From Eledone cirrhosa (lineage: Eukaryota), in the NCBI GenBank assembly GCA_964016885.1, contig OZ024740.1:334118001-334182000 (forward strand): 64,000 nucleotides of DNA, read 5' to 3'. Of this stretch, positions 29,451 through 63,357 are shown piece after piece. The notes beneath the pieces are model-generated. The model was not told the DNA's origin and made no database searches. It worked only from the letters and a program-made list of their open reading frames with translations. The position numbers and the translations under genes are program-made. How positions within the stretch are numbered: position 1 is the first letter of the stretch; each line of letters opens with the position of its first letter.

Positions 29451-29458
29451 GTAATATC

Positions 29459-29520
<62 letters not shown>

Positions 29521-35337: not shown

Positions 35338-35540
35338 AACCCCAATAAGCAGTTATTTAACCCCGAAGGGCCAAATAACGGGCAGAAAGAACCCTCTCAC
35401 GAGGAGGAGGGTGTTTTTGTCTACAAGTTCGTTAAAGTTTTAAACAATTTACAATTGTTATAGCGTTCAAAATTTACAATACCTTACAGAGCCGAGCCTC
35501 CGTCAACCATAGCATTCAATAATAATAATAATAATAATAA

Positions 35541-39925: not shown

Positions 39926-39929
39926 AAAC

Positions 39930-39976
<47 letters not shown>

Positions 39977-40020
39977 GGGAAGAAGACGCACGAGGTGACG
40001 GAGGTCATGAAATCGCTCCC

Positions 40021-41553
40021 GTAAGTTTTGAATTTTTAACATATTTAAATCATTTGTGAAATAACAACTCTTAGTACAAATGCTACGTAAAGCACCGGGC
40101 TTGAGCCCCAAAAAAATTCGGACCCAAAATATATTGTTATAAGGCTCAAATATTCAAATATTCAACTTTGTATTGTACACTGTATATCCCAAAAAAAATG
40201 GCTATAAATGGAAGAAGAAGAACCCCCCCCCCCTCCCCTCCTCTGGCTACACTATATAGGACAGCTAAACTCACCAACACCAGAAACTAGATACACCACC
40301 CACCCCATCATCTGTGTACACTAAACACAACAGCATTTTCACCTTCACCGCCACCGCTCACTACGGCCATCATTACCACCACTATCCCATCACCGCCGCC
40401 ACCACCCCTTGACTTCTTCACTGCTGCTGCCACCGCTACAGCACCATCACTACAGTAATACGGCTCAAATATTCAAATATTCAACTTTGTATTGTACACT
40501 GTATATCCAAAAAAAAATAAAATGGCTATAAATGGAAGAAGAAGAAACCCCCCCCCCCTCCTCTCCTCTGGCTACACTATATAGGACAGCGAAACTCACC
40601 AACACCAGAAACTAGATACACCACCCACCCCATCATCTGTGTACACTAAACACAACAGCATTTTCACCTTCACCGCCACCGCTCACTACGGCCATCATTA
40701 CCACCACTATCCCATCACCGCCGCCACCACCCCTTGACTCCTTCACTGCTGCTGCCACCGCTACAGCACCATCACTACAGTAATACGGCTCAAATATTCA
40801 AATATTCAACTTTGTATTGTACACTGTATATCCAAAAAAAAAAAAAATAAAATGGCTATAAATGGAAGAAGAAGAACCCCCCCCCCTCTCCTCTGGCTAC
40901 ACTATATAGGACAGCGAAACTCACCAACACCAGAAACTAGATACACCACCCACCCCATCATCTGTGTACACTAAACACAACAGCATTTTCACCTTCACCG
41001 CCACCGCTCACTACGGCCATCATTACCACCACTATCCTATCACCGCCGCCACCACCCCTGACTCCTTCACTGCTGCTGCCAACGCTACAGCACCATCACT
41101 ACAGTAATACGGTCGCATCACCGCCACCACTGCCTCGGTACCGACATCACCACCACCACTGTCTCAGTATCGCCAACGCCGCCAGTCTCTGCTGGCTACC
41201 ACTTCCACATTATAGAATTCCTACTACTAACAAAGAGGAAGGCATCAAAATATATAGATAGACTCAAAAGAAAAAAGAAAAAACAAACAACAAAAGCAGC
41301 ACAGCAACAACAGTAAAAAACGAGAAAAACAGAGAAAAACAAAAACAAAAAAAGAAACCCCAAAAACGTAAAGAAAATAAGAATGAAGAGAGAAGCAGGC
41401 GGACGGACAGAGAAGAGGGGGGAAAAAGTAAAACTTAAAAAACAAAAACTAAGTCAGACATTCGAATACTACATTACAATGAAACTTATGCTTATTCATT
41501 TTTGGGGCCCTTTCTGCCCGTGTGTTTGTTTGTTTATGTGTGTCCGTATACAG
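40021..41553 (+). other. Putative spliceosomal intron in the leader of copy 4
   Basis: CCC|GTAAGT at 40021; CTTAT (41491), T/G-rich tract, TACAG| at 41549-41553. Confidence 0.55.
40143..41110 (+). repeat. Three tandem ~320-bp units
   Basis: Units start ggctcaaatattcaaatattc at 40143, 40462 and 40787; near-identical except homopolymer lengths. Confidence 0.95.
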
Positions 41554-41681
41554 CGTGGTGATAATGCCACACAAGGGCCAAGTGGGATGGCGGATCCACA
41601 GATGGCTATGTAAACATACATTCGCCAATCCTCGATAAGAGTGTTTAAATATCGAACATAAACAGTTCGAATAACGGTGAA

Positions 41682-44600
41682 ATGGAGACTAGAAAGTCAT
41701 GTGACAGACTCTCACCCAACAGGTGCCCCCTGGCTCAGCAGCAGGAACCTGACTGTCAACCAAATACTGCTGATGTTGGAGGAAGAAGAAGAAGGAAAGG
41801 GGCCAGAACCAACTGGACGAAAGAATTGAATAGAACTGTTATGCAATGCTACCTGAAAAGTAACCCCAAGGAGAGGGGCTACAGGAGACGGATGCATAAC
41901 ATCTGGAACGAGATTGGTTTATTTAAATTAGATGAACAAAAATTGGCCGGGCAGGCTCGGGTAATAAGAACTAATGGGTGGATAAGCGAGCTGGAACTGG
42001 AGGAACTGAGCAGAGAGAATGGCTTGGAGATGGCGGGTGTAGTATGCCAGACAAGCGAGCCGGCGGGAAATGAAGGTGAGGAGGTCCTGAGAACGGAGGA
42101 ACCACCCGAAGCAGACAATGATCTGAATACTGAGATAAATAATACCTGGAACAGAGATACGGCCACTGAGGAGATGAATGCTGACGGGCTAGGACAAGAT
42201 TCGGTTGACATCCTAAATTTAGTGGTAGATGAGTTGAACAATGATAGTGGGAGACCTATGAACCTAAGATTTGTAGACAGGAAAAAGTTAAAAGAAACAA
42301 CAGCTAAGGTAAACAAAGTCATCCCATACCTTGAGGCGAGGAGTCTTCACCAGTGCAACAATATCCTCAAAGCAACAGCAAATACGGTGAGGAAACTACT
42401 TGGTATAAAAGCGAGAGGAAACAACAGACAAGAAAGAGCAGAGCCGTGGTGGAGGAAGCGACTGAGTGGGCAAATCGGGGAAATGAGAAATGACATAGGA
42501 AAGCTTGAGTTACTACTGAATGGGACACTAAAAACATAGGCACTAAAAATAGACTGGAAATAAAATACAAAACTAGGAGTAAAAAGCTAAATATTATCAT
42601 AGAGGAATTGAAGCAACGCATTGTAGCAAAGAGTGCCAAAATCAGGCGATACGAGAACAGAGTCAGTCAGTATAAACAGAACCGCATGTTCGACAACAAC
42701 CAGAAGATGCTGTTTGGACAGCTTGAGGGGAAAGAAAGAGGCAACGACTTGATCCCTGGGGCGGAACAAGCTAAAACATTCTGGAGAGGAATATGGGAGC
42801 AGGATGTTAGACACAATGCCCAGGCAGGGTGGATTGAGACAGTACAGAGGGAGATCGGTGAGCAGGCACAGCAACAGACTGATTTGAGTATCACAGTTGA
42901 AACTCTTAAGGGGCAAGCCAAAAAACTAACCAACTGGAAATCACCAGGCCCAGATGGTGTGCAGGGGTATTGGATTAAACATTTAACATCCCTCCACCCG
43001 AAGCTGACGGCCATGTTCAATGACTGCTTGGTGTCGGGTGAGGTGCCAGAGTGGTTGACAAAAGGTACCACAGTTCTGATAATGAAAGACCGAATCAAGG
43101 GTAATGATGTTACCAACTATAGACCTATCAGATGTCTGCCCGTAATGTGGAAACTGTTGACGAGCATTGTGTCTGAGGAAATCTACCATCACCTCCACAC
43201 AAACAACTTGTTGCCGGACGAACAGAAAGGATGCCGAAAGAAGTCACGTGGTACAAAGGACCAGTTGCTTATTGATAAGATGGTAATGGGGAATTGCAGG
43301 AGGAGACACACTGATCTTGCCATGGGATGGATAGACTACAGAAAGGCATTTGACATGGTGCCTCATTCCTGGATCACCAAAAGCCTGGAGATCTTCAGGG
43401 TGGCAGATAACATCAGACAGTTGCTGGGCAGGAGTATGGGGTCCTGGGAGACAGAGTTGACATCAACTGGAGTATCCTTGCGAAGCGTGAAGATCAAGAG
43501 AGGTATCTTCCAGGGAGATAGCCTGTCCCCTCTGTTGTTTGTCCTTGCCCTGATGCCCTTGACCATTATGCTGCGAAAAGTGAGAGCAGGATACAAGTTG
43601 GGAAGGGGAGAGCTTACCATCAATCACCTCCTCTTCATGGACGATCTTAAGCTCTTCGGGAAAAGTGAGAAGGAGTTGGATGTGCTTGTTGACACTGTCC
43701 GTATTTTCAGCAGTGATATATGTATGCAGTTTGGTATTGGTAAATGTGGAGTCATTGTGATGAGGAGGGGTAGGTTGAGCAGAAGTAACGGGATCCAGAT
43801 ACCAACAGGTGAGATGATAAAGGAAATTGACTCTGAGGAAGGATACAAGTATTTGGGCGTTCTGGAGGCTGATGGCATAAAGAACAAAAAAATGAAGGAA
43901 TTGTTAAGAACTGAATACATTCGGAGAGTAAGGAGCGTATTGAAGTCACATCTGAACAGCAGAAATGCCATAAGCGCAGTAAATTCCCGAGCTGTGTCTA
44001 TTATTAGGTACAGTGCGGGAATCCTGAGATGGAATGTTGCTGAACAAAAAGAAATGGATAGGAAGACTAGGAAGCTATTGACTATCTACAACATGTTCCA
44101 CAAGAGAAGTGATGTCGATAGACTCTACCTAAGGAGATCTGAGGGTGGAAGAGGTCTTATCAGCATAGAGGACTGTGTTCAGATGGAGAAAAACAACCTA
44201 TACAAATACGTGACCTATAGTAAGGAGCCAATGCTCAGAGCTGTACTGAAGGAGGGGACAGTAGGCCAGGGGATACCCAAGGAGGAAATAACATCAAGGA
44301 GGAAGAGCAGCCTTAAGGGAAAATCCCTTCATAGTACCTTCTTTGAGAAAACTGAATTTAGAGATCCACAGACATGGAACTGGTCGAGAAGAGGAGACCT
44401 CAAAAAGGCTACAGAAGGAATGCTAATGGCTGCGCAGGAGCAGGCCCTCAAAACGAAGTGGTTGAAGCACCATATCTACAAGGAGGAGGCTAGCCCACTG
44501 TGCAGGATCTGTGGAGGGAGAGAGGAGACTGTGGCTCACATTGTGTCCGAGTGTAAACACCTAGCCCAGACCCACTATAAGGGCTGGAGACACGATGTGA

Positions 44601-45073
44601 TGGGCAGGGTGATCCACTGGCACCTGTGCAAAGTAAACAATCTACCACATTCTGAGAAATGGTATGAGCATAGGCCAGAGGCGGTGATGGAGAACAGTCA
44701 GGTGAAGGTGCTGTGGGATTTTAGGATACAGACGGACAAAAAACTGGAACACAATAGACCTGACCTGGTGGTTGTGGACAAAGAAAAAAGATCGTGCTTG
44801 ATTGTGGATGTGGCCTGCCCGTTCGACACGAGAGTGCAAGAGAAGGAGAGGGAGAAAATTAACCGATACCAGGACCTAAAGTGGGAGGTGAAAAGGATTT
44901 GGAACTGCCATGAAGTCAAAGTGATCCCGATTGTCATAGGCGCACTGGGGACTATCTCCAAAGGTTTCCAGGGATGGTTAAAGAAAATCGGCCCCTTCAC
45001 GCTTTTTGGAACGCTTCAAAAGGCATGCTTGCTTGGAACGGCAAGAACCCTCCGATACGTCCTGAATATCTGA
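41682..45073 (+). CDS. Dong/R4-like protein (N-terminal domain, RT, CCHC, restriction-like endonuclease), one frameshift near 42535
   Basis: 285-aa and 821-aa ORFs join if one A is restored in ctaaaaacatag (other copies ctaaaaaacatag); KSPGPDG, YRPI, GIFQGDSLSPLLF, FMDD, YKYLG, CCHC, RHD, PD..D, K..RY. Confidence 0.88.
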
Positions 45074-45159
45074 GGCTGCAGGTAGTGGCTTGATATTCAA
45101 TCCAACGGACTTTCCAGTTAACCAACATCAATGACTGAGATTCAAGGAATAACAATAAC

Positions 45160-45193
<34 letters not shown>

Positions 45194-45240
45194 GGGAAGA
45201 AAAACGAACATGGTGGATATATCGTTATGGAATCGCTCCC

Positions 45241-46081
45241 GTAAGTTTTTAATTTTTACATATATAAAACAACTGTGATAGAATAATTCTTATTTCAAAT
45301 GAAACATAAGATTACAGTTTTGATTCTCAGCAAGCGACAACGCATCACATTATGACATGGGTCCCAATATTTAATATTTAATTTTGGATCAGAAATGTTA
45401 TAGTCAAAGAAGAGGAAAATGGCTACGTGGACAGACAGGCAAATAATTTCACCACCAACACCACGACCGCCACTATCACCACTACCACACGAAAAAACTC
45501 TAGCCAAGTTACTCCAACTTCTATTTCTACCTCAACTTCAACACCATCACAACAGTACTACAATCACATCACCACCACCACCACTGCCTCATTATCGCTA
45601 CCGCCGCTATTCTCTCCCACTACCTCCTGCTAAGTACTACTAGCACATCATCACCACCACCACTGACTCATTATCACTACCGCCGCTATTCTCTCCCACT
45701 ACCACCTGCTAAGTAATACTATCACATCACCACCACCACCACTACGTCATTATCGCTACCGCCGCTATTTTCTCCCTCTATCTCCTGCCAAGACAGAGGG
45801 ATCGTAGTATTCCCACTAAGTGAGGAAGGTATCAAAAGAAATAAATAGACTGATTTGATGACCCGGTCAGAAAATCAAAAAATCAAAAATTAAAATCAAA
45901 ACAGCACAGCAGCAACGAAAAACGTAAAGAAAATAAAAAAGAAAATAAAAACAAAAAAAACAAGACAAACGAACAAACAAAACTAAGTCAGACATTCAAA
46001 CATTACATTACAATGAAACTTATTCTTATTTTTTTAAGTTTTTACCTATTTATTTGTTTATTTATTTATGTTCGTCTACAG
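45241..46081 (+). other. Putative spliceosomal intron in the leader of copy 5
   Basis: CCC|GTAAGT at 45241; CTTAT, T-rich tract, CTACAG| ending at 46081. Confidence 0.55.
45565..45790 (+). repeat. Three tandem ~78-bp CAC-rich units
   Basis: cacatcaccaccaccaccactgcctcattatcgctaccgccgctattctctcccact...gctaagta repeated; two copies in the homologous region 62820-62980. Confidence 0.88.
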
Positions 46082-49000
46082 CGTGATAGTGCCACGCTAA
46101 AATCACCGGGGTCATCAAATCACTGGGGGTGATGAAATCACTGGTGGTTATGTAAACATACATTCACCAATACTCGATATGAGTGTTTAAATGTCGAACC
46201 TAAACAGTTAGAATAACGGTGATGTGGAGGCTGGAATGTCATTTGACAGACTCTCACTCAGCAGGTGCTCACTGGGCCAGCAGCAGGGACCTGGCTGTCA
46301 TCCTAATACTGCTGGTGTTGGTGGAAGAAGAAAATGGAAAGGGACCAGAACCAACTGGACGAAAGAATTGAATAGAACTGTTATGCAATGTTACCTGAAG
46401 AGTAACCCCAAGGAAAAAGGCTATAGGAAACGAATGCATAGCATCTGGAACGAGATGGGTCTATTTAAATTAGATGAACAAAAATTGGCCGTGCAGGCTC
46501 GGGTAATAAGAACTAATGGGTGGATAAGGGAGCTGGAAATGGAGGAACTGATCAGAGAGATTAGATTGGAAATAGAGAGTGGAGTATGCCAGGCAAACGA
46601 GTCAGTGGGAGATGAAGGTGAAGAGGTTGAGAGAACGGAGGAAGCATCCGAAGCAGACAATGTTCTGAATGCTGAAATAAATAATACCTGGAACAAAGAT
46701 ACGGCCATTGAGCAAATGAATGCTGACGGGCTAGGACAAGATTTGATTGATATCCTAAACTTAGTGGTAGATGAAATGAACAATGATAGTGGGAAACCTA
46801 TGAACCTAAGATTTGTAGATGGGAAAAAGTTAAAAGAAAAAACAGCTAAGGTAAACATAGTCATCCCATACCTTGAGGCGAGGAAGCTTCACCAGTGCAA
46901 CAATATTCTCAAAGCAACAGCATATGCGGTGAGGAAATTACTTGGCATAAAAGCAAGAGGAAACAACAAACAAGAAAGATCAGAACCTTGGTGGAAGAAA
47001 CGACTGAATGGTCAAATCAGGGAAATGAGAAATGACATTGGAAAGCTTGAGTCCCTACTGAATGGGACACTACAGAACATAGACACTAAAAATAGACTGG
47101 AAATAAAGTACAAAACTAGGAGGAAAATCTAAATAGTGTCATAGAGGAACTGAAGCAACGCATTGTAGCAAAGAGTGCAAAGATTAGGCTATCCGAGAGC
47201 AGAGTCAGTCAGTATAGACAGAACGGCATGTTTGACAACAGCCAGAAGATGTTGTTTGGACAGCTTGAAGGGAAAGAAAGAGGCAACGACTTGATCCCTG
47301 AGGCGGAACAAACTAAGACATTCTGGAGAGGAATATGGGAGCAGGATGTTGAACATAATGATTAGGCAGTGTGGATTGAGACAGTACAAAAGAGGTTAGT
47401 GAACAGTCACACCAACAAACTGATTTGAGTATCACAGTTGAAACTCTTAAGAGGCAGGCCAGAAAACGAATCAACTAGAAATCACTAGGCCCAGATGGTG
47501 TGCAGGGGTATTGGATTAAAAATATAACATCCCTTCACCCGAAATTGACAACCATGTTCAATGACTGCTTGATGTCAGGTGAGGTACCAGACTGGTTGAC
47601 AAAAGGTACCACAGTGCTGGTAATGAAAGACCGAATCAAGGATAATGATGTTACAAACAATAGACCTATCACATGTCTGTCCGTAATGGGGAAATTGTTA
47701 ACAAGCATTGTGTCTGAGGAAATCTACCATCACTCCACATAAACAACTTGTTACCGGCTGAACAGAAAGGATGCCGAAAGAAGTTCTGTGGTACAACGGA
47801 CCAGTTACTTATTGATAAGATGGAAATGAGGAATTTCAGGAGGAGACACACTGGTCTTGCCATGGGATGGATAGACTACAAAAAGGTATTCGACATGGTA
47901 CCTCATTATTGGATAACCAAAAACCTAGAGATCTTCAGGGTGGCAGATAGCATCAGACAGTTGTTGAGCAAAAGTATGAAGTCCTGGAAAACAGAGTTAA
48001 CATTGGGCGGAGAATCCTTGGGAGGCATGAGGATCAAGAGGTATCTTACAGGGAGATAGTTTGTCCCCTCTGTTGTTTGTCCTTGCCCTAATCTCCCTGA
48101 CCATTATACTGCGAAAATTGAGAGCAGGATATAAGTTGGGAAAAGGAGAGCTTACCATCAACCACCTCTTCTTCATGGACGATCTTAAAATCTTTCGGAA
48201 GAGTGAGAAGGAGTTGGATGTACTTGTTGACACTGTCCGTATTTTCATCAATGATATATGTTTACAATTTGGTATTAATAAGTGTCCTAGTTATGAAGAT
48301 GTGTAAATTGAGCAGAAGCAACGGAATCCAGGTACCAACAGGTGAGATGATAAAGGAAATTGACACTGAAGAAAGATACAAATATTTCGGTGTTCTGGAG
48401 GCAGATGACATCAACAACAACAAATGAAGGTATTGATATGATATGAGTACATTAGGAGAGTAAGGAGCGTATTAAAATCACATCTAAATAGCAGGAATGT
48501 CATAAGTGCAGTGAATTTCCGAGCTGTGTCTATTATCAAGTACAGTGCGGGAATTCTGAAATGGAAAGTTGCTGAACAAAAAGAAATGGATAGGAAGACT
48601 AGGAAGCTATTGACTATCTACAACATGTTCTACAAGAGGAGTAATGTCGATAGACTCTACTTAAAGATATATGAAGGTGGAAGATGTCTTTTCAGCATAG
48701 AAGTCTGTGTTCAGATGGAGAAAAACAACCTGTAAAATACGTGACTGACAGTAGGGAGCCAATGCTCAGAATTGTACTGAAGGAGAGGACAATTGACCAG
48801 GGGATGTCCAGGGAGCGAATAACAGCAAGGAGGTAAAGCAGCCTTCATGAAAAATCCCTTCATAGTACCTTCTTTGAGAAAACTGAATTCAGAGATCCAC
48901 AGACATGGAACTGGTTAAAAAGGGGAGACCTTAAAAAGGCTACAGAAGGAATGCTAATGGCTGGGCAAGAGCAAGCCCTCAGAACGAAGTGGATGAAACA

Positions 49001-49095
49001 TCATATTTACAAGGAGGAGGCTAGCCCACTGTGTAGGATATGTGGATCCACTGGAACCTATGCAAAGTAAACAATTTACCGCATTCTGATACAAT

Positions 49096-51270
49096 GCATT
49101 CGAAGCAGACAATGATCTGAATGCTGAAATAAATAACATCTGGAACAAAGATAGAGTCATTGAGGAAATAAATGCTGACGGACTAGGACAAGATTTGGTT
49201 GATATCCTAAACTTAGTGGTAGATGAAATGAACAATGATAGTGGGAAACCTATGAACCTAAGATTTGTAGAGAGGAAAAAGTTAAAAGAAACAACAGCTA
49301 AAGTAAACAAAGTCATCCCATACCTTGAGGCGAGGAACCTTGAACAATGCAATAATATCCTCAAGGCAACAGCAAATGCGGTGAGGAAATTACTTAGTAT
49401 AAAAACGAGAGGAAACAACAAACAAGAAAGATCAGAACCTTGGTGGAAGAAACGACTGAGTGGTCAAATCAAGGAAATGAGAAATGACATTGGAAAGCTT
49501 GAGTTCCTACTGAATGGGACACTAAAAAACATAGAGACTAAAAATAGACCGAAAATAAAGTACAAAACTAGGGGGGAACACTAAATATCATCATAGAGGT
49601 ACTGATGCAAAGAGTGCAAAGATTATGCTGTATGAGAGCAGAGTCAGTCAGAATAGACAGAACCGCATATTCGTCAAAAACCAGAAGATGTTGTTTGGAC
49701 AGGTTGAAGAGGCAACGACTTGATCCCTGAGGCGGAACAGACAAAGACATTCTGGAGGGGAATATTGGAGGAGAATGTTGAACGGGTGAGGTTCCAGAGT
49801 GGTTGACACAATGTACCACAGTTCTAGTAATGAAAGCCAGAACCAAGGGTGATGATATTACAAACTATAGACATATCACATGTCTGTCCGTAATGTGAAA
49901 ACTGTTAACAAGCATTGTGTCGGAGGAAATCTACCATCACCTCCACATAAACAACCTGTTGCCGGACGAACAGAAAGGATGCCGAAAGATGTCCCGTGGT
50001 ACAAAAGACGAGTTACTTATTGATAAGATGGTAATGAGGAATTGCAAGAGGAGACACACTGGTATTGACATGGTATGGATAGAATACAAAAAGGCATTCG
50101 ACATGTTACCTCGTTTTGGATAACCAAAAGTCTAGAGTCTAGAGAGACAGTTGTTGAGCAAAAGTATAAAGTCCTGGGAAATAGAGTTAACATCGGGTGG
50201 AGAATCCTTGGGAGGTATTAAGATCAAGACAGGTATCTTCCAGGGGGGATAGTTTGTCCCCTCTGTTGTTTGTCCTTTCCCTGACATCCCTGACCATTAT
50301 ACTGCGAAAGGTGAGAGCAGGATACATGTTGGGAAAAGGAGAGCTTACCATCAATCACCTCTTCATGGACGATCTTAAACTCTTTGGGAAGAGTGAGAAG
50401 GAGTTGGATGTACTTGTTGACACTGTCACAATTTTCAGCAATGATATATGTATGGAATTTGGTGTTAATAAGTGTGGAGTTCTAGTGATGAAGAGGGGTA
50501 AATTGAGCAGAAGCAACGGAATCCAGGTACCAATAGGTGAGATGATATAGGAAATTGACACTGAAGAGGGGTCAAATATTTAGTTGTTCTGGAGGCAGAT
50601 GACATTAAGAACAAAAAGAGGAAGGAATTGATAAGCTGAGTACATTAGGAGAGTAAGGAGCGTATTAAAGTCACATCTAAATAGCAGGAATGACATAAGT
50701 GCAGTGAATTCCCAAGCTGTGTCTATTATTCGGTATAGTGTGGGAATTTTGAAATGGAATGTTGCTGAACAAAAAGAAATGGATAGGAAGACTAGGAAGC
50801 TATTGACTATCTACAACATGTTCTACAAGAGGAGTAATGTTGAGAGATTCTACTTAAAGAGATCTGAAGGTGGAAGAGGTCTTATCAGCATAGAGGACTG
50901 TGCTCAGATGGAGAAAAACAACCTGTACAAATACGTGACTGACAGTAGGGAGACAATGCTCAGAATTGTACTGAAGGAGAGGACATTAGACCAGGAGATT
51001 TCCAAGGAGGAAATAACAAGAAGGAAGAGCAACCTTCATGAAAAATCCCTTCATTATACCTTCTTTGAGAAAACTGAATTTAGAGATCCACAGACCTGGA
51101 ACTGGTTAAAAAGAGGAGACCTTAAAAAGGCTACAGAAGGAATTCTAATGGCTGCGCAAGAGCAGGCCCTCAGAACGAAGTGGGTGAAACACCATATTTA
51201 CTAGGAGGATGCTAGCCCACTGTGTAGGATCTGTGAAGAGAGAGAGGACACTGTGGCTCACATTGTATCA
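49096..51270 (+). mobile_element. Dong/R4-like family A copy 6, degraded, fused to copy 5
   Basis: Restarts at gcattcgaagcagacaatg (N-terminal region), runs through RT to the CCHC knuckle. Confidence 0.87.
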
Positions 51271-51507
51271 CATTGAGACTCAATGTCTGACTTAGTTTTT
51301 TTTTTGTTTGTTTTCCTTTTTGTTTTTCAAGGGCAGTAACATTGGTTAGTGGTCTTGTTGTTGCTACTGCTGCTCTTTTTGATTTTAGCTACGTGGGAAG
51401 TAGAGGTTGTTGCGTTCAAAACTTTTGAAATCTGTTTTTCTTTTGCTCTTGCGTTTGTTTTTTTCTGTGTTCTGTTCTGTAATTTTTCGTCTTGTTGCTT
51501 ATCATTG

Positions 51508-51760
51508 AATTGGCAGTATCGGTAGAGGGTTGGACGCCATGCTTTCTAACATAGTTACGTCCCTTTACGGTCTGAGTTCAAATCCCGCCAAGGTTAACTT
51601 TGCCTTTCATCCTTACGGGGTCAATAAAATAAAGTACCAGTAAAGTACTCGATCATTGCTGGCCTTGTGCCTAATGTAGAAACAATTATTATTATTATTA
51701 TTATACCAGTAATGCACTGGGTAATTGCTGGCCTTGTGCCAAAAAGTAGAAACAAATAGT
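51508..51760 (+). mobile_element. tRNA-derived SINE with (ATT)n tail and duplicated 3' end
   Basis: A-box TGGCAGTATCGG, B-box GTTCAAATC, shared core, tail at ~51685-51704. Confidence 0.87.
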
Positions 51761-51778
51761 ATTGTTATTTGACATTAC

Positions 51779-51967
51779 TGGATTGGCAGTATAAGTAGAG
51801 GGTCGGACGCCATGCTTTGCAGCAAAGAGTTACCGCCCTTTATGGTCTGCTTTCAAATCCCGCCGAGGTTAACTTTGCCTTTCATTCTTACGGGGTTGAT
51901 AAAATAAAGTCCAGTAATACACTGAGATAATTGTTGGCCTTGTGCCAAAAGTAGAAACAATTATTAT
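51779..51967 (+). mobile_element. tRNA-derived SINE
   Basis: Homologous to the other three copies. Confidence 0.85.
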
Positions 51968-52571
51968 TTGACATCGTTTAACCTAAACATTTTTAGAGAG
52001 TTTAGAGATACAACAACAATAATTATTATGGTGTTTCCGTTTGCTGTTTGACCGGGTCACTAAATCAGTCTATTTATATCTTTTGGTGACTTCCTCGTTT
52101 CCTAATCATGTGTAGTGGCACTACTAACTTCCCTCTCTTAACATGAAGTAGTGAGGGAATAGTGGTGGTAGCAATGATGCAGTAGTGACGGTAGTGATGG
52201 AATAGTGGTACTGTAGTGATGGTGTTGTTGCTGCTGTTGGTTTGTATCTAGCTAAATTTGTTGTGGTAGAGGTGGTGGTGTCGGATGGGTTTTGTCGTGA
52301 AATTATTTGGCTGTTGTTTTCTTCTATTTGTGACCATTTGTAACCATTTTCTTTTTTGACTATAAAAGACCTATGCCATAGTGTTATAAGTTGTCACTTC
52401 CTGAGAGCTAAGACTGGTGTCTTATGTCACATTTGTAATAAGAATTATTCTATCACAATTGTTTTAAATATGTAAAAATCAAAAACTTACCGGAGCGATT
52501 CCATAACACTCTATCCACCATGTGAGTATTCTTCCCTCATTATATTATTATTATTATTATTATTATTATTT

Positions 52572-52685
52572 TTATTTTCTTTCATTATTGTTTCTGAGAT
52601 ATATGCCGAGTGTCTTCCTGACACCTTGGGCAAATAAATTCACAGTGTGCTTTGGTAAGCCAGTTAATAAGACACATTGATTATA
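52572..52685 (-). mobile_element. Short 3'-terminal fragment of a non-LTR element with AAT tail
   Basis: Near-duplicate of 53556-53660; ends in (AAT)n on the minus strand. Confidence 0.65.
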
Positions 52686-52759
52686 ATTTAAAAAAAACAA
52701 TAAAAAAAACAGTATACATATATACACATGTGCATATGCATATGTAAATACAAGGAGGG

Positions 52760-53545
52760 ATATTCTTTCTTCATCATTCCCAGTCCTCCCACGATCACTG
52801 GTATTGTAACGGCCTTGAGGAGCCACATTTCCTCAATTTCAATAGGAAGATCTTTATATTTTCGTAACTTGTCAAATTCTTTTGCCGTGATATTGTGATT
52901 GCAAGGGATGCTCATATCTATCAATAAACATACCTTGTTATGTTGATCTTTTACAATGAAGCCTTCACCCTTCGCCTTTAGCCCTGAACTACGTAGCCAC
53001 TGATGGGCATGCTTTTGGTCAAAATCAGCTTGTTAGCTACGGGACAAATATTTGCCAGGCAGAGGTTTCTGCTCCCAATTTGATGCTAATTGTCCCTGCC
53101 CTTTTGCTTTTGCCAGTGATTTTATGTGCCTAGCAGCATCACTTGCAACAGTTTCTTTAGTCTGTCCAGTCTGGGTATCAAGCATGAGATCAGTAGCATA
53201 TTTTTTGCTCTCCTTCAAGATAGAATGAAGATTTTTACTTCTCTCATGCTTTTCAACAAGTTTCAGCATACAGTGGTTAGTTGTTTCAAGGTATTTGGCC
53301 AGTCCAATGATGGTGGTCTTGTAAGCAAATTCAAATTGTATCAGGCCACGGCCTCATTGAGTTCTAGGCTTTAAAGACGATCCACATCTGCTTTTGAGTG
53401 GTGCATGCTATTACAGGTCAGTAGCTTACGGACTTTGGTGTCGATTCTTTTGATTTCCCTCATATTCCAGTTCAACACACCGAAGCTATAAGTGACAACT
53501 GGGACTGCCAAGGAAATGATGGCTAGCACCTTGTTACGAGCGTTT
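52760..53545 (-). mobile_element. Dong/R4-like family C fragment
   Basis: NARNKVLAIISLAVPVVTYSFG, DVDRL, WLRSSGLK, IDMSIP, KYKDL, VIVGGLG. Confidence 0.85.
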
Positions 53546-53555
53546 ATTATTATTA

Positions 53556-53660
53556 TTGTTTTTTTTCTCCTTACATTATTGTTTCTGAGATATATGCCGA
53601 GAGTTTTCCCGACACCTAGGGCAAATAAATTCACAGCGTTCCAGTTAATACAGCACATTG
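53556..53660 (-). mobile_element. Short 3'-terminal fragment of a non-LTR element between AAT tracts
   Basis: Near-duplicate of 52572-52685; AAT runs on both sides. Confidence 0.65.
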
Positions 53661-53680
53661 TTATTATTATTATTATTATT

Positions 53681-56600
53681 ACAGTTGCATTTATCTTGCT
53701 TTATGTGCATACGAGTTATCACCAAGTCACAACCAGTGACCTCATGAAACAACAAGGTCCGCCATGTTCAAGAAAGAACATACATACAGACTTATGCATC
53801 TCTAGGTGTTTAGACTGTTGTGATGTACTTATATTGACAGAATCTTCCTTAGTATATGGGCAGTTCCCAATTAGTACTATCTTTTATATTTCTCTTATAC
53901 GCGGATTTCCTGGGATTTGCGATAAGTAATCATTAGACCCCTTAGGTATCATTGCTAGAGCGCCTACAACCACTGGTATTGTTTTAGTTCTCAATTTCCA
54001 CATTTTTCCAATTTCTATCTCCAGGTCCTTATACTTGCTCAATTTTTCAAATGTTTTTATAGATACATTCTTGTCTATTGGAACGGACATATCAATTAGC
54101 AGGCATATCCTTCTTTTAAAGTCCTTCAGTATTATATCAGGTCTATTTGCATCTATTTTTCGGTCTGTTTGGATGCTAAAGATCCACAAGATTAAGATGT
54201 AATATTTTTCAAGTGTGGGAGGTGTTGATTCTCCCACCAATTCTTTTGATGGGGCAGGTCAAAATGCTTACACATTATCCAATGTATTGTACAGCTCTGT
54301 CATGCCTGTTTAGGTATTCGGTTGGAGCTATAGGACTGCACATTGAAATTATATGGTCAATGGTCTCTGGTTGTTTTTTTACATACACGGCATAATGGGT
54401 TGCATCCATTTTTTATTATGTTGGCTTGGAATTTTTTTGTTGGCAGACACTGATCTTGTGCTGATATAATCAGTCCTTCAGTCTCCGATTTCAGTCCAGA
54501 GGATGCCAACCACTGATGGGTTAAAGTTTTGTCAACATCAGGATTGTTAGCTCTTTCTGGGTATTTTCCATACAGAGGCTTTTCTTGCCATTTCTTAGCC
54601 AGTTTCTGTAGCATTTCTTTCTTTGCAGTCACTTTTATCTGCTTTGCTTTTTCTGTGTTTGTCATTTCAGCAGTAAATGGAACTTCTGAAATGTGTAGTT
54701 CATTACTGTATCTTTGTGCATCTTTTGTAATGAAGTATGATCTTTTGATGCTTTGGTGTTTCAAAACGAGTTTGATCATCCAATCATGTGATTCCCTTAG
54801 ATATGTAGATAATCCAATTGTTGCAGTTTTCAACGCAATATCTAACTTTATTAACCCACGTCCTCCTTCTTCCGTAGGGAGATATATTCTATCTATATCT
54901 GCCTGAGGGTGATGCATTCTGTGCCTGGTTAAGAATTTTCTAATTTTTGTATCGAGCCTACGGATCTCTGTGCTTGACCAGTTGATGACATTGTAACTGT
55001 TGGTTACTTCTGGTATGGCAAGCGTGTTTATGGCATCGATCCTATTCCTTGCATTCAATTCCGTTCTTAAGATTGTTCTTACTCTGCGGTAACATTCCTT
55101 CCTTATCATTTCCCTCATTGTCGATTGCTTGATTCAGTCTCCTTCACAAACACATAGATATATCAAGATTAATGTCTGAACTTTTCAGCAGCTTTCCTCT
55201 GGTGAACCTTGCTTTGACGCATTTATCTAGTCCAAACTCCATTTTAATGTCATCACTGAACGGCTCCACATGGATAATAGCCTTTGCAATTGTTCATCAT
55301 TTTTTTGCAAATAGTTTCAGGTCATCCATGTAGAACAAGTGATTAATGGTTTTGTCATAGACTTTACATCCATGTTTTGTTTCATTGAGCATTTTACTTA
55401 ATGGTATAATTGCGATGCAGAATAAAAGCGGTGATAAAGAGTCACCCGGAAAAATTCCACAATTAATATTAACTTCTCCAGCTTCCAGTGATTTTTTTTC
55501 ACTTTTCGAAAGGAGTGTCGTTTTCCATGTCTTCATACTGAATGACAGGAACCTCTTTACAACGGGATATATGTTAAAAATCTCTAAACATTTTTCAATC
55601 CAACTGTGTGGCAAACTATCGAATGCTTTTTTATAATCTATCCAAGCAATTGATAGATGTTTGTATCTATCATGACAATCTTCCAGTATCATTTTGTAAA
55701 CCAAAAGTTCATTCTTGCAGCCATATGAGCCTCGTTTACACCCAGTCTGCTCATTGGAAAATAGATCATTTGTTATCAGGTCGTCATATGTATATTCAGT
55801 TAGGACCGATGTTAAAATTGTATACATTGTGGTGAAGCAAGTTATCTTTCTGCTCAATGGGAAATAGGTCATTTGTTATCAGGTGGTCATATGTGTATTC
55901 AGTTAGGACTGATGTTAAAATTTTATACATTGTGGTCAAGCAAGTTATCCGTCTGTAATTTTTGGTATTGTTTGTCTCATCATTCTTCGGAAGCAGGAAT
56001 GTAATGCCGTTAACTAGCCATGATGGTATATTTTCTGGCTCCTTAACTATTTCATTGTAAAGTTGGGCTAACAGCTCATGAGACTATGTGAAGGCATTTA
56101 TCCAAAAAATTTGTATTTTGTCTTTTCCTGGGGATTTCAACGTGCTGGTTTTTCTAAGAGCCAAACGCAACTGTTCAACTGTTATATTTTCCCATATTTG
56201 TTCCTCAAGGTGAGCTGTATCTTTCATTTGTCTGTCTGTCCATGGGGCATGTATATTATGAACTTTTTCTTCGGCCCAGATCTTTTCCCATAATTCTTGC
56301 ATTTCCTCCTTGTGTGGTATTGATTTAGCAGTTATTGTTGACTTGCCAATTTTTCTGTAGAAGTTTCTTTGTTTGTTTTTGAACATATTATTGTCCTTAT
56401 AGAATCTAGATCGTTTTTCAAAGCGCCTTATACGAGCAGCTTTGGCCGACACTTTTTGCTTCATTTTTTCTATCAGCATGTCTATGTCACTTGTTGATTT
56501 TATACTGTATTTTCATTTCAATTTTCTAAGTTTAGTTTGTTTAACATGGTTCCTACTTTGTAGCTTGTTAACATTTCTATGTCAGATCGGAGAAGTTTTA

Positions 56601-57715
56601 TTTGGCGATTGATGTTCTGTAACCAAGTAGATTTCTTGTGGAAATTCCTTTGTCTTTTCATTTTCACTCCACATAAATGAGTTGTGACTTTAGCCGATGT
56701 ATAATAGAGATGATTTAAATCAGTAATGTTTAGTTTGTTTGTGATGATAATGTTTTTGAGAATTATCTTAGTCTTGTGCATTATCTTTTGGTTCTATTTG
56801 GAGTTCTGGATCTTAGGCAGAGTGTCTCATCCCCCCATGTCAGATTCTTTCATTTTCATCCATTCGATCATAATTTCATCCTTCAAGTTGGCAAGTTCAT
56901 TCTCATTCATTTTTTATCATTTACGATCTCATTGTTTTCATTCTGAGTTTCATCTTGAGCATGCACTGCCTCCACTATTTCGATCCTTTCTTTAATTTGT
57001 TCTGTTGTCAGTGATTCCGCCCCAAGCCCGGGATTCGAAGTGTTACAATTTACCTCGTTTTTACTGACACATGTTTCATTTTCCCTTCGCTGACTTTGTG
57101 CTAATAGCTTGATCTGATCAATTTCTATATCAGTTAGTAACTTTTTTTTTACAATATTTCTTCGTATATTGGCTAGTTTGTTACTGTCAATATAGCCTCT
57201 GTTTTCGGGATGTTTCTTTTGCAGTTGATATATGTTTGTTCTGTATTCGATCTATTTGATGGGTAGTACATGGCAGTGTAGAAAGCCTCAAGGACTTCTT
57301 TATTATCTTCCCTTGACCATGTATCTCTCTTTTTCTTTGGATTTCTTGGTGGTGAGCATGGAGGGTCAACAGTAGGAGTATTCCGGTTATGGGAGGTCTC
57401 CAGCTCCGAAGTGATGGGAAGGTTTGAACCATTAGCTGATATTTCGACCCCAGTCTGGTTCCTCTCTGAGAGACGCGGCCCTTTTCACCCGGGTGACGGC
57501 CGATCCAGTATGAGATTTTATCATTTGACATTTACTTTATTTTGTCGCGTTTTATCCTTAACCAAGGGGTAATCATTTCATGTAAACACTTCTAGGACGA
57601 GTGTCAACCAAGACTAGAGGGGTCGTTCTCCCCTAGAGACACGGCTATTCCCCGCCGGCCGCCATCCCGGTATTTCTTCGTCACGGTGGTTTATCTTTTT
57701 TGTTGTTTTTTAAAT
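53681..57715 (-). mobile_element. Dong/R4-like family B, near full-length, degraded
   Basis: KSPGKD, IDYKKAFD, GDSLSPLLF, HLFYMDD, CRVC, RPD...D, KYKDL in successive ORFs; (AAT)n tail at 53661-53680; local duplication near 55770-55950. Confidence 0.9.
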
Positions 57716-57790
57716 TGTTATTATCATGAGTGGTTCCTTAATGTGAGCATTGCGTGGCTTAAGAATGAAATTATTATTAATAATATATGT

Positions 57791-57980
57791 GGCGGTGGAT
57801 TGGCAGTATCGGTAGAGGGTCAGACGCCATGCTTTCCAGCATAGTTACGTCCCTTTACGATCTGAGCTCAAATCCCGCCGAGGTTGACTTTGCCTTTCAT
57901 CCTTACGGGGTCGATAAAATAAAGTACCAGTAATGCACTGGGTGATTGTTGGCCTTGTGCCTAAAGTAGAAACAATTATT
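57791..57980 (+). mobile_element. tRNA-derived SINE, apparently full-length
   Basis: GGCGGTGGATTGGCAGTATCGG head, B-box-like GCTCAAATC, core resembling the MetaSINE Meta domain (from memory), ATT tail. Confidence 0.88.
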
Positions 57981-57989
57981 AATAATATA

Positions 57990-58822
57990 CTTTTTGTTGA
58001 AGTTGCCTGTTATTGTTGTTGGCTATGTAGGTGGTGGTGCTGGGGCTTTTTCTATTGTTGGTGGGGAAGGGGGGAGCCAGCAGTCCACAGTCGATGACGT
58101 TTGACCGGGTCACTAAGTCAGTCTATTTATATCTTTGTTAACCTCTCCCTTGTCTAGTGATACCTCCACCTTCCCCTTTCTTAAGTTAACAGAAGGTAAT
58201 GGGGGAATAGTGGTGGTAGCAATGAAGGAGTGGTTGCGGCAGTGATGGGATAGTGGTAGCAATCATGGAGTGGTGGCGGTGGTGACTATAGTGATGGCGT
58301 TGTCGTTACTGATTTTTGTTGAATAGACTGTAGTGGTATGCGTTTGATTGATATGTGTATCTATGCGGTTTGTCGCGTATGTTGACATATTTTCTTAATA
58401 TTTGAATTAAACATTGAGATACAATTAAACTTGAGATAAAATAATAGTAATTATTATTATTATGCTGGGATTGGTGGTGGTGGTGGTGGTGAAATTGCCG
58501 TTATCTGGCTGTTATATTTAATGTGCACAGAGGGGTGATGGGATAGGTGGTGTATCCAGTTTGTGGTGTTGGTGAAATTGTTGTTATTTGGCTGTTCTAT
58601 ATAGTGTGGTCTGAGGGAGTTTTCTTCCATTTATAACCATTTTCTTTTTTTAATATAAAATGTATAATACAAAATTGAATATTTGAGCGATATAACAGGA
58701 TATTATGGATCCGAATTTCCTGAGATCCAAGTCTGGCGCTTTATGTACTATTTGTACTACGAATTGTTATATGACAATAGTTTTAAATATGTTAAAAATT
58801 AAAAACTTACGGGAGCGATTCC

Positions 58823-58823
<1 letters not shown>
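57990..58823 (-). mobile_element. Orphan family-A-type leader (no family A ORF)
   Basis: (AAT)n-cggaatcgctccc|GTAAGT (donor 58810); one copy of the unit triplicated at 40143-41110; TATAAATAG...TGACCCGGTCA. Confidence 0.8.
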
Positions 58824-58876
<53 letters not shown>

Positions 58877-58879
<3 letters not shown>

Positions 58880-58953
58880 TGTACCATCTTGTATTGTCAT
58901 GTACTGTCCTTAATGTCTAATTTGTGTAAACCCTTGTGGTTAATAAAGAAAGC
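58877..58953 (+). mobile_element. Tx1/L1-like copy T3, terminal ~77 bp only
   Basis: Matches the 3' end of T1/T2 (ccttgtggttAATAAAgaaa); (ATT)n on both sides. Confidence 0.88.
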
Positions 58954-58977
58954 ATTATTATTATTATTATTATTATT

Positions 58978-61900
58978 GTTCTTTGAGTATGTCATTCATG
59001 TTAGTTAACTGGAAAGTTTGTTGAAATGAATATCAAGCCACTACCTGCAGCCTCAGATATTCAGGACATATCGGAGGGTTCTTGCTGTTCCCAGCAAGCA
59101 TGCCTTTTGTAGTGTTCCAAAAAGCGGGGCGCGGCCAATTTTCTTTAACCATCCCTGGAAACTTTTTGAGATAGTACCTAGTGCGGCTATGACAATCGGG
59201 ACCACTTTGACTTCATGGCAGTTCCAAATCCTTTTTACCTCCCACTTTAAGTCCTCTCCTTCTCTTGCACTTTGGTGTCGAATGGGCAGGCCACATCCAC
59301 AATCAGGCACGATCTTTTTTCCTTGTCCAAAAATACCAGGTCAGGCCTATTGTGTTCCAGTTTCTTGTCCGTCTGTATCCTAAAATCCCACAGCACCTTC
59401 ACCTGATTTGTTTTCTATCACCGACTCTGGCTTATGCACATAACACTTCTCAGAATGTGGTAAATTGTTTACTTTGCATAGGTGCCAGTGGATCACCCTG
59501 CCCATCACATCATGTCTCTAGCCTTTATAGTGAGTATGGGCTAGGTATTTACACTCGGATACAATGTGAGCCACAGTCTCCTCTCTCTCTCTCCACAGAT
59601 CCTGCACAGTGGGCTAGCCTCCTCCTTGTAAATATGGTGTTTCAAACCACTTCGTTTTGAGGGCCTGCTCTTGCGCAGCCATTAGCATTCCTACTGTAGC
59701 CGTTTTAAGGTCTCCTCTTTTCAACCAGTTCCATGTCTGTGGATCTCTGAATTCAGTTTTCTCAAAGAAGGTACTATGAAGGGATTTTTCATGAAGGCTG
59801 CGCTTTCTCCTTGTTGCTATTTCCTCCTTGGACATCCCCTGGACTATTGTCCTCTCGTTCAGTACAATTCTGAGCATTGGCTCCTTACTATCAGTCACGT
59901 ATTTGTGTATGTTGTTTTTCTCTATCTGAACACAGTCCTCTATGCTGATAAGACCTCTTCCCCCTTCAGATCTCCTTAAGTAGAGTCTATCGACATCACT
60001 CCTCTTGTGGAACATGTTGTAGATAGTCAATAGCTTCCTAGTCTTCCTATCCATTTATTTTTGTTCAGCAACATTCCATCTCAGAATTCCCGCACTGTAC
60101 CTAATAATAGACACAGCTCGGGAATTTACTGCACTTATGGCATTCCTACTGTTCAGATGTGACTTTAATACGCTCCTTACTCTCCGAATGTATTCAGATC
60201 TTATCAATTCCTTCATTTTTTTGTTCTTGATGTCATCAGCCTCCAGAAAGCCAAAATACATGTATACTTCTTCAGTGTCAATTTCCTTTATCATCTCCTC
60301 TGTTGGTACCTGGATTCCGTTGCTTCTGCTCAATTTACCCCTCTTCATCACAAGCACTCCACACTTACTAATACCAAATTGCATACATATATCATTGCTG
60401 AAAATACGGACAGTGTCAAAGAGCACATCCAACTCCTTCTCACTCTTCCCGAAGAGCTTAAGATCGTCCATGAAGAGGAGGTGATTGATGGTAAGCTCTC
60501 CCTTTCCCAACTTGTATCCTGCTCTCACTTTTCGCAGTACACTGGTCAGGGGCATCAGGGCAAGGACAAACAACAGAGGGGACAGACTATCTCCCTGGAA
60601 GATACCTCTCTTGATCTTCACCCTTCCAAAGGATTCTCCGGCTGGTGTTAACTCTCTTTTCCAGGACTTCATACTTTTGCCCAACAACTGTCTGATGTTA
60701 TCTGCCACCTTGAAGATCTCTAGGCTTTTGGTGATCCAAGAATGAGGCACCATGTCAAATGCCTTTTTGTATTCTATCCATCCCATGGCAAGACCTGTGT
60801 GTCTCCTCTTGCAATTCCTCATTACCATCTTATCAATAAGTAACTGGTCCTTTGTACCACGGGATTTCTTTCGGTATCCTTTCTGTTCATCCGGTAACAA
60901 GTTGTTTGTGTGGAGGTGATGGTAGATTTCCTCAGACATAATGCTTGTTAACAGTTTCCACATTACGGACAGACATGTGATAGGTCTATAGTTGGTAACA
61001 TCATTATCCTTGATTCGGTCTTTCATTACCAGAACTGTGGTACCTTTTGTCAACCAGTCTGGTACCTCACCTGACATCAAGCAGTCATTGAACATGGTTG
61101 TCAGCTTCGGGTGGAGGGATGTTATATTTTTAATCCAATACCCCTGCACACCATCTGGGCCTGGTGATTTCCAGTTGGTTAGTTTTTTGGCCTGCCCCTT
61201 AAGAGTTTCAACTGTGATATTCAAATCAGTTTGTTGGTGTGCCTGTTCACTAATCTCCTTTTTTACTGTCTCAATCCACACTGCCTGGTCATTATGTTTA
61301 ACATCCTGCGCCCATATTCCTCTCCAGAATGTCTTAGTTTGTTTCGCATCAGGGATCTAGTCGTTGCCTCTTTCTTTCTCATCAATCTGTCCAAACAGCA
61401 TCTTCTGGTTGTTGTCAAACATGCGGTTCTGTCTATACTGACTGACTCTGCTCTCGTATCGCCTAATGTTTGCACTCTTTTCTACAATGCGTTGCTTCAG
61501 CTCCTCTATGGTAATATTTCGCTTTTTCCTCCTAGTATTGTACATTATTTCCACTCTATTTTTAGTGTCTATGTTTTTTAGTGTCCCATTCAGTAGGGAC
61601 TCAAGCTTTCCAATGTCATTTCTCACTTCCCTGATTTGACCATTCAGTCTCTTCTTCCACCAAGGTTCTGATCTTTCTTGTTTGTTGTTTCCTCTCGCTT
61701 TTATGGCAAGTAATTTCTTCACCGCATTTGCTGTTGCTTCGAGGATATTGTTGCACTGGTGAAGGCTCCTCGCCTCAAGGTATGGGATGACTTTGTTTAC
61801 CTTAGCTGTTGTTTCTTTTAACTTTTTCCTGTCTACAAATCTTAGGTTCATAGGTTTCCCACTATCATTGTTCAATTCATCTACCACTAAGTTTAGGATG

Positions 61901-63355
61901 TCAACCAAATCTTGTCCTAGTCCGTCAGCATTCATCTCCTCAATGGCCGTATCTTTGTTCCAGGTATTATTTATTTCAGCATTCAGATCATTATCTGCTT
62001 CGGATTCTTCCTCCGTTCTCTCAACCTCTTCACCTTCATTTCCCACTGGCTCGTTTGCCTGGCATACTCCACTCTCCATTTCCAACCTAATCTCTCTGAT
62101 CAGTTCCTCCAGTTCCAGCTCACTTATCCACCCATTAGTTCTTATTACCCGAGCCTGCCCGGCCAATTTTTGTTCATCTAATTTAAATAGGCCAATCTCG
62201 TTCCAGATGTTATGCATCCGTTTCCTATAGCCTTTTTCCTCGGGGTTACTCTTCAGGTAACATTGCATAACAGTTCTATTCAATTCTTTCGTCCAGTTGG
62301 TTCTGGTCCCTTTCCTTCTTCTTCCGACACCAGCAGTATTTTTTGAGACAGCCAGGTCCCTGCTGCTGAGCCAGGGAGCACCTGCTGGGTGAGAGTCTGT
62401 CACAAGACATTCCAGTTTCCACTTCACCGTTATTCGAACTCTTTAGGTTCGACATTTGAACACTCTTATCGAGGATTGGTGAATGTATGGTTACATAACC
62501 ACCGGTGATTTCTTCGCCCCCGATGATTTTAGTATGGCACTATCACGCTGTAGGCGAACATAAATAAACAAACAAACAAATAGGTAAAAAAAAAAAAGAA
62601 TCAGCATAAGTTTCATTGTAATGTAATGTTTGAATGTTTTTTTTTTCCTTCTCTGTCTGTTTATTTTTCTTTTCCTTTTTCTTTTCTTTACGTTTTTCGT
62701 TGTTGTTGTGCGGTTTTGACTTTGATTTTTGTTTTTTTGATTTTTTTGACCGGGTCATCAAATCAGTCTATTTATATCTTTTTATGCTTTCCTCTTTTAG
62801 TGGGGACACTACGAGGCATGTCTTAGCAGGAGGTAGTGGGAGAGAATAGCGGCGGTAGCGATAATGAGGCAGTGGGTGGTGGTGGTGGTGGTGGTGGTGG
62901 TGCTGTGCTAGTAGTACTTAGCAGGAGGTAGTGGGAGAGAATAGCGGCGGTAGCGATAATGAGGGAGTGGTGGTGGTGATCTGATCGTAGTACTGTAGTG
63001 ATGGTGTTAAAGTTGAAATAGAAATAGAAGTTGAGGCAACTTGACCAGAGTTTTTGGCGTGGTAGTGGTGATGGTGGCGGTTGTGGTGTTGGCGGTGATT
63101 TTATTTGCCTGTCTGTCCACTAGCCATTTAGCCATTTTGCCATTTTCCTCTTTTTCGAATATAACATTTCTGATCCAAAATTAAATATTAAATATTGGGG
63201 CCCTATGCCGTAAAGTGATGCGTTATGGCTTGCTGAGCGTAAATAATGCAATCTTATAGAATTATTCTATCACAGTTGTTTTAAATAAGTAAAAATCAAA
63301 AACTTACGGGAGCGATTCCATAACGATATATATCCACCATGTGCGTTTTCTTATC

Positions 63356-63357
<2 letters not shown>
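58978..63357 (-). mobile_element. Dong/R4-like family A copy 7 with leader, full-length, several stops and frameshifts
   Basis: ORFs 62427-61357, 61281-60055, 60054-59614, 59310-59053; AAT tracts at both ends. Confidence 0.92.
62548..63307 (-). other. Putative spliceosomal intron in the leader of copy 7
   Basis: CCC|GTAAGT at 63307; branch-like CTGAT (62604-62600), T12 tract, CCTACAG| ending at 62548. Confidence 0.6.

Follow-up and report, generated by a model that had tools for sequence, protein, structure and literature searches.

Introduction

Long interspersed elements (LINEs) are thought to use one RNA both as message and as template, and an intron would be expected to be lost in the first round of copying. 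Splice signals within retroelements are already known in the form of the retained spliceosomal introns of Penelope-like elements (PMC4209133, citing Arkhipova 2003) and the 5' UTR splice sites of human L1, where an overlapping RUNX3 site is the reason for keeping the donor and about 2% of copies are spliced although most L1 RNA is unspliced (PMC5860796). The use of two RNAs, one as message and one as template, would be unusual for LINEs. For the Dong/R4 clade, members of which are reported to be active in Octopus (PMC9115989, PMC13282606), a literature search whose scope stopped short of Repbase entries, subscription papers and the Octopus supplements found no report of an intron; the word 'intron' is absent from the main text of the two Octopus papers, and the excerpted text of PMC9940879 has nothing on introns in LINEs. 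An initial annotation of the locus described here had called intron retention a trait of Penelope-like elements with no known R4/Dong example; as far as this search reached, the statement about R4/Dong holds, but human L1, the closest precedent, had been missed (PMC5860796).

Organization of the locus

The window, by which we mean the whole 64,000-nucleotide stretch of Eledone cirrhosa DNA that was analysed, is a nest of non-LTR elements set in (AAT)n tracts within a host genome of 3.0 Gb. Its features are as follows, in window coordinates.

39930..39976 (+): (AAT)n target tract ahead of family A copy 1
39977..40020 (+): family A copy 1 (young lineage), first exon of the common leader, 44 nt
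40021..41553 (+): family A copy 1, candidate GT..AG leader intron, 1533 nt, with a 325-nt unit present three times at 40139-41112
41458..41553 (+): family A copy 1, acceptor region comprising a conserved block, an AG-free T-rich tract and TACAG; foldback with an upstream purine-rich tract possible
41554..45147 (+): family A copy 1, exon 2, RT/RLE ORF and 3' UTR, with a frameshift near 42510-42540 and a stop at 45073
45194..45240 (+): family A copy 2 (old lineage), first exon
45241..46081 (+): family A copy 2, candidate GT..AG leader intron, 841 nt
46082..49060 (+): family A copy 2, exon 2 and decayed ORF, rearranged further downstream
63308..63356 (-): family A copy 3 (old lineage), first exon
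62548..63307 (-): family A copy 3, candidate GT..AG leader intron, 760 nt
58980..62547 (-): family A copy 3, exon 2, decayed ORF and 3' UTR
57758..58822 (-): family B leader, with a 5'-truncated exon 1 (58822-58811), the donor at 58810 and an interior in common with family A
57758..58822 (-): within the same leader, a B-specific part with a short inserted repeat and a weak candidate acceptor, TTCTTAAG, at 57758
57570..57676 (-): family B 5' motif, likely the older 5' end of B, also found at the 5' end of metagenome Dong-like elements
53681..57757 (-): family B body, decayed ORF
52047..52537 (-): leader fragment without a body, with exon 1, the donor at 52490 and the interior as far as the divergence of A from B
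26495..29458 (+): 5'-truncated family A copy with an internal deletion, starting CCTCG after (AAT)n, one of 15 such starts in the genome

The three family A copies with leaders had been described in the initial annotation as carrying a segment of about 45 nt, then GTAAGT, then 0.76-1.5 kb of sequence up to TACAG|CGTG, and the measured GT..AG distances (1533, 841 and 760 nt) bear this out. All three leaders end in CTTAT or CTGAT, a T-rich tract and TACAG|CGTG, the branch-point-like words CTTAT and CTGAT being short. Two further leaders with GTAAGT had been taken for orphans; the one with its donor at 52490 does lack a body, but the one at 58810 is the leader of a family B element.

Other residents of the window include a second type of non-LTR element on the minus strand (29520-35500 and 37120-39450), which has two ORFs and an RT match, also adjoins AAT tracts and is presumably L1/Tx1-like. 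A short dispersed repeat with several copies, likely a SINE, lies at 51540-51960 and 57790-57975, and a fragment of it is fixed in many family B leaders immediately ahead of the candidate acceptor.

Protein and clade assignment of family A

Family A has a single ORF of about 1141 codons, which is open over 1140-1141 codons in 4 of the 20 A copies fetched; the intact copies are L036, L037, L039, L040 and L227, the last a family B element. The ORF matches Pfam RVT_1 (E 7e-23), and its C-terminus carries a CCHC knuckle (C-x2-C-x8-H-x4-C) together with the RHD and PD..D..K motifs of a restriction-like endonuclease. The Pfam search of the protein returned no APE endonuclease family and no match to its N-terminal piece; at this end of Dong/R4 proteins a diverged Myb/SANT domain has been described (PMC7998251). 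The best PDB matches are R2 proteins (9nl3, 9dou, 9nl2 and 8gh6), and the flanks of the examined copies identify the insertion site as (TAA)n microsatellites, the reported Dong target (PMC7998251). From architecture and target, family A is classed as a Dong/R4-like LINE, the homologues found carrying no element names.

The young lineage has ATA at the first ORF ATG of the older lineages (window 41649-41684; L037:1291-1330), which would shift the start 11 codons later. Exon 2 varies by units of 3 and 18 nt (window 46100-46152) and holds a short open frame of Ser-Pro repeats with a constant stop and no start codon linking it to exon 1; this frame may be due to chance.

The leader as a fixed part of the element

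The donor 15-mer, ATCGCTCC(C/G)GTAAGT, in which GTAAGT matches the donor consensus at 6 of 6 positions, has 2062 exact copies in the genome against 2 for a control. It occurs at five sites in the window (40012+, 45232+, 52485-, 58805- and 63302-), where chance would give 0.11 matches and none of 100 shuffles reached five, and the five GTAAGT donors named in the initial annotation are present exactly where it had placed them. The CCG|GT form seen at 52490 is a rare point variant with 7 copies genome-wide.

An anchor directly ahead of the family A ORF has 2795 genomic copies, and the first 70 of these were examined without regard to the donor. A recognisable donor was present in 33 (GT in 33/33, GTAAGT in 28/33, the five variants all different) and a decayed one in a single copy, and the rest were 5'-truncated at scattered points, interrupted, or extended beyond the range fetched; none of the 70 was intronless. 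The CCTCG start after AAT, found in only 15 of the 2795 copies, is what AAT microhomology would give and was rejected as the true 5' end. Full-length copies that all begin without a leader, which the initial annotation had named as evidence against its reading, are not what these 70 copies show. Full A leaders, of which 47 distinct ones measuring 666-1888 nt were compared, all have the GT and AG ends of a putative U2-type spliceosomal intron; GTAAGT is present in 42/47 and TACAG|C in 46/47. The leader, with its first exon of about 44 nt and its GTAAGT, is an integral part of family A.

Contigs from four sequencing runs of unknown kind were also compared with the leader. Those of run X4 bridge donor and acceptor in unspliced form, and the 286-1196 junction is absent among the 15 joints inspected out of 16, which, since contigs drop rare forms, counts neither for nor against splicing. 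Contigs of run X6, labelled as another organism (C), span exon 1 with the donor, as well as a portion of the ORF, at a few percent difference, so that the leader may exist in a related species. At the 5' junctions of L010, L015, L253, L254 and L255, mostly family B, exon 1 is separated from (AAT)n by a (GAA)n tract, which looks like an expansion of the exon's GAAGAAGA start by slippage at integration.

Family B and exchange of the leader

Family B (57757-53681 in the window) shares 35% protein identity with family A over 1204 residues, and an open frame of 1216 aa was found in 1 of 16 copies (L227). Its copies begin with A's exon, donor and about 600 nt of interior, followed by B-specific sequence without A's acceptor; GTAAGT is present in 22 of 23 B leaders and the candidate acceptor TTCTTAAG is kept in 21 of 23. 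Among the first 90 donor matches, which all come from contig 1 and hence form no random sample, 63 belong to A, 18 to B and 9 are unassigned. The genome is estimated to hold roughly 1,450-1,600 A and 410-460 B copies.

A tree was built on the first 300 nt of the leader from 23 B rows and 27 A rows, with no A lineage contributing more than 7. On it the A and B labels require 5 changes, at least 3 of them forced by well-supported branches, which indicates that the cassette was exchanged repeatedly between the families. The two families also form head-to-tail arrays (window 39500-49060 and the donor list of contig 1), in which spacings of 4.5-5 kb between donors are common and copies of A alternate with those of B; such arrays arise because the terminal (AAT)n of every element is a target for the next one, and they would favour leader exchange.

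Family B is the likely recipient, since the motif lying 3' of its leader heads Dong-like metagenome elements and stands right after (AAT)n in L148. This B-type 5' motif (window 57570-57676, minus strand; L148:95-201, L149:241-350 and L190:68-217) matches 3 of 79 metagenome Dong-like loci, with E values of 4e-11, 6e-9 and 0.007. Across four sequences it has 18 predicted pairs, six with two-sided change, and a possible pseudoknot by eye; L130, L132 and L149 gave no Rfam match for it. It may be an undescribed ribozyme or translation element.

No match to the A leader was found in the 79 metagenome loci. Of 26 relatives inspected, most of those in which the (AAT)n boundary can be seen have a 5' UTR of about 100-300 nt. 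Other heads occur at the 5' ends of these relatives. A tRNA-like head stands right after the microsatellite in L199 (84-168) and others at the 5' ends of L151, L152, L182 and L217, ARAGORN calling 1 of the 5, which suggests that 5' promoter modules are often captured in the Dong-like clade. A different conserved head of about 60 nt follows (AAT)n in L154, L155, L171, L176, L177 and L179, with no Rfam match in the five elements tested.

Conservation of the splice signals

The five A lineages are 93-99% alike over the first 600 nt of the ORF, and the leaders of the old and young lineages are 62.5% alike over the first 344 columns, against 93% for their ORFs. Across eight leader lineages, of which five are A and three B, no invariant run exceeds 19 nt; this longest one is centred on the donor, spanning positions -10 to +9, and the runner-up measures 8. 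The simulated chance of such a run at the local rate is 0.017, with 12 of the 19 positions being part of the search pattern and only 7 free. The initial annotation had contrasted conserved splice-like ends with a variable interior, and the ends are indeed kept, but conservation also extends to the ten exonic bases 5' of the donor, which are as invariant as the donor and which U1 pairing would not need, and to a block of about 50 nt ahead of the T-tract that is as conserved as the splice signals. The unchanged AG of the A acceptor is weak evidence, as ORF divergence between the A lineages amounts to only 1-7%.

The leader might also be a piece of host pre-mRNA captured once, with splice signals that are unselected leftovers. 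Such a capture would account for perfect signals at the origin, and the Dong-like relatives have short 5' UTRs that lack a leader of this kind; it is very improbable, given that more than a third of the interior sites have changed while the donor block has not, and that this block survived at least 3-5 exchanges between families.

Of 18 copies examined for AG-free sequence ahead of the A acceptor, 16 have 68-94 such bases, and two with mutations have 0 and 9. By T content the A acceptor ranks first among the 55 and 42 AGs of the leaders scored, with 88-94 AG-free nt; the candidate acceptor of B ranks first among 44 AGs. In all complete copies the A T-tract can pair with an upstream purine tract. 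The margin of this hairpin over arm-shuffled controls is slight (z from -0.1 to -2.7 across 18 related copies), and as a specific fold it was set aside as mostly composition. Two other structures at the 5' end were likewise discarded. An exon-1 hairpin is unsupported, shuffled sequences folding as well as the 5' ends of leaders (z from -0.35 to +1.56), and a mini-exon akin to an SL RNA was rejected on the lack of a stable fold there and on an Sm-like word that, judged by the Sm-site consensus, is broken in the old lineage. Rfam searches of the A and B leaders, in which diverged ribozymes could be missed, returned only microsatellite noise and no ribozyme match.

Predicted splicing would reduce the upstream ATGs of the A leader from 11-22 to 2-5. 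The possibility that exon 1 is fused in frame with the ORF was rejected, a stop standing directly before the ORF and the spliced upstream frames being closed. AATAAA is present in many leaders, at 0-3 each. Words resembling promoter motifs, one DPE-like in exon 1 and others TATA-like in the interior, differ between lineages.

Genomic copies interrupted at the donor

The A junction GCTCCC|CGTG has no genomic copy by exact or gapped probes or by open-ended junction searches, which miss copies with a decayed exon 1 as well as acceptors that have A/C/T-T or G-(A/C/G)-A behind them, and B's own junction has no match with exact or gapped genome probes. When exon 1 followed by anything but G-T was sought, 7 genomic copies were found (the complementary pattern added none), two of which are no junctions, being a 1-nt deletion and a double substitution. 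Two others, L246 and L247, are full-length, AAT-flanked B copies missing precisely 167 nt, a stretch that starts with GT and ends with an AG further downstream, and there is no microhomology between exon end (CCC) and intron end (AAG); they carry different exon-1 variants and lie on separate, weakly supported tree branches. In L249 exon 1 is joined to the B 5' UTR at B's candidate acceptor, with the expected CC; because 9 further nucleotides are missing, this is a probable rather than an exact junction. The neighbours L244 and L245 represent one event, joined 5 nt short of the AG of L246 and L247, which may be a plain deletion.

The four independent donor junctions, two of them exact, compare with none at a control breakpoint at +6, which gave a single match (a double substitution) and, as the only control position, provides a thin background. 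Since excised genomic copies exist and the control breakpoint gave none, the leader donor is, on this genomic evidence, very likely a real splice site used by the spliceosome, with exact junctions numbering only two. All four events fall in B, although B makes up only 18 of the 81 classified donor copies (22%; P=0.002, or 0.05 for the two exact events alone), and the cryptic AG used in B is also present in 27 of 51 A copies. Spliced copies have an upper bound of about 0.2% in A, and excised copies make up about 0.5-1% of B.

These numbers bear on two further explanations, in both of which the acceptor of A is seldom or never used. In the first, the donor would be kept for U1 snRNP (as an aid to transcription, to prevent premature cleavage in the A-rich leader, or for nuclear retention), the A acceptor would be masked by a hairpin, splicing would be rare, the full-length RNA would be both mRNA and template, and the B excisions would be by-products like the SpIREs of L1. 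We regard this, the main rival of the reading preferred below, as possible, if doubtful. The lack of spliced A copies fits it, as do the retention of the donor in B (GTAAGT in 22/23) without A's acceptor, an excised share in B near the 2% of L1 (PMC5860796), the T-tract foldback in complete copies and the AATAAA words of many leaders. It has no account of a 94-nt AG-free tract ending in CAG just 5' of the ORF, and its hairpin beats arm-shuffled controls only weakly; moreover, a masked acceptor would leave the A donor open to the cryptic AG used in B, yet no such A copy was found, at a P of about 0.05-0.1 for the two exact events.

In the second, the 19-nt block would be a promoter element acting at the DNA level with an incidental donor, as with the RUNX3 site of L1, and the acceptor look-alike would be an RNA stem arm or a protein-binding signal. 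Invariance that covers ten exonic bases, a leader that moves between families like a promoter cassette, the other 5' heads of Dong-like elements, one of them tRNA-like, and the direct precedent in human L1 (PMC5860796) all speak for it. We nonetheless consider it improbable in view of the full GTAAGT at about +45, the best-scoring AG at the far end of the leader in both A and B, and the joining of L249 at B's candidate acceptor.

A proposed two-RNA model

Our preferred reading, put forward tentatively and somewhat short of probable, is that family A splices the leader for its protein mRNA and that the unspliced RNA is the template copied into (TAA)n sites. In its wider form, in which A would be a retrovirus-like LINE whose splicing divides mRNA from genomic RNA, with an intronic template signal and a promoter-plus-donor cassette traded between two families 35% alike, it is rather unlikely. 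In R2 elements, 5' RNA plays a role in integration. It is also known that the R2 protein acts in trans on a separate template RNA (PMC11331408) and that an intact donor motif blocks RNA export (PMC4380460).

In the two-RNA model, the leader would hold an internal Pol II promoter, as suggested by the sharp 5' end that it gives and its movement between families as a cassette. The A donor would be taken by the strong TACAG acceptor, yielding an exported mRNA for the single RT-endonuclease protein, and splicing would strip most upstream ATGs and free the RNA for export. Unspliced RNA would stay in the nucleus because of its intact donor, and imported protein would bind it there in trans, and/or the A protein may require the conserved block of about 50 nt within the intron; sorting of message and template by compartment would be one route for excluding the mRNA from copying. 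Family B would have acquired the 5' two thirds of the leader and not A's acceptor, so that its donor finds weak or cryptic AGs, and the resulting RNAs may occasionally be copied; the older motif of B lies 3' of its acceptor, which would fit copying of spliced B RNA. The occurrence of junctions only in B, despite the cryptic AG in A, fits an A donor captured by the A acceptor with a product that is not copied.

Several observations weigh against this two-RNA model. It needs near-perfect exclusion of spliced A RNA, and in B spliced RNA has been able to serve as a template; no spliced copy was found among the roughly 1,450-1,600 of A, against about 2% in human L1 (PMC5860796). The invariance of the donor is matched by that of the ten exonic bases, for which U1 pairing gives no explanation, 2-5 upstream ATGs remain after splicing, and the join of exon 1 to the ORF is out of frame. 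Pairing of the T-tract with the purine tract could, on the predicted fold, mask the acceptor. Family B thrives without a strong acceptor, and L1 is an example of a donor that can be retained for a promoter site although splicing remains rare (PMC5860796).

Comparison with known systems

Family A resembles the Dong/R4 clade in its single ORF with RT, CCHC knuckle and restriction-like endonuclease motifs, its (TAA)n insertion and its scattered 5' truncation (PMC7998251), and differs from known Dong/R4 elements in a leader of 0.8-2 kb with GT-AG signals. It shares with Penelope-like elements the keeping of a putative spliceosomal intron in genomic copies, whereas the GIY-YIG domain, terminal repeats and hammerheads of those elements were not found in A or B by Pfam, Rfam and PDB searches. 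As with the 5' UTR splice sites and SpIREs of human L1, the 5' region of a LINE carries a conserved donor, the bulk of copies are unspliced and few are precisely spliced (PMC5860796); unlike in L1, the donor matches the consensus in full, the acceptor of family A is preceded by a long clean tract, spliced A copies fall below about 0.2%, and the leader is common to two families 35% alike. Family A also has the same protein architecture as R2, whose protein can use a separate template RNA (PMC11331408), and differs from R2 elements with an HDV-like 5' ribozyme in that neither leader has an Rfam ribozyme match and the target is a microsatellite, not 28S.

The retention of an intron by a family with about 1,500 copies, none of them spliced, would demonstrate either template selection against its own mRNA or the use of U1 snRNP by a LINE, and the bearing of this on template choice by R2-like proteins makes it relevant to tools for RNA-templated gene insertion. 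The common leader provides a natural experiment, in which one donor is paired with a strong acceptor in family A and stands without one in family B.
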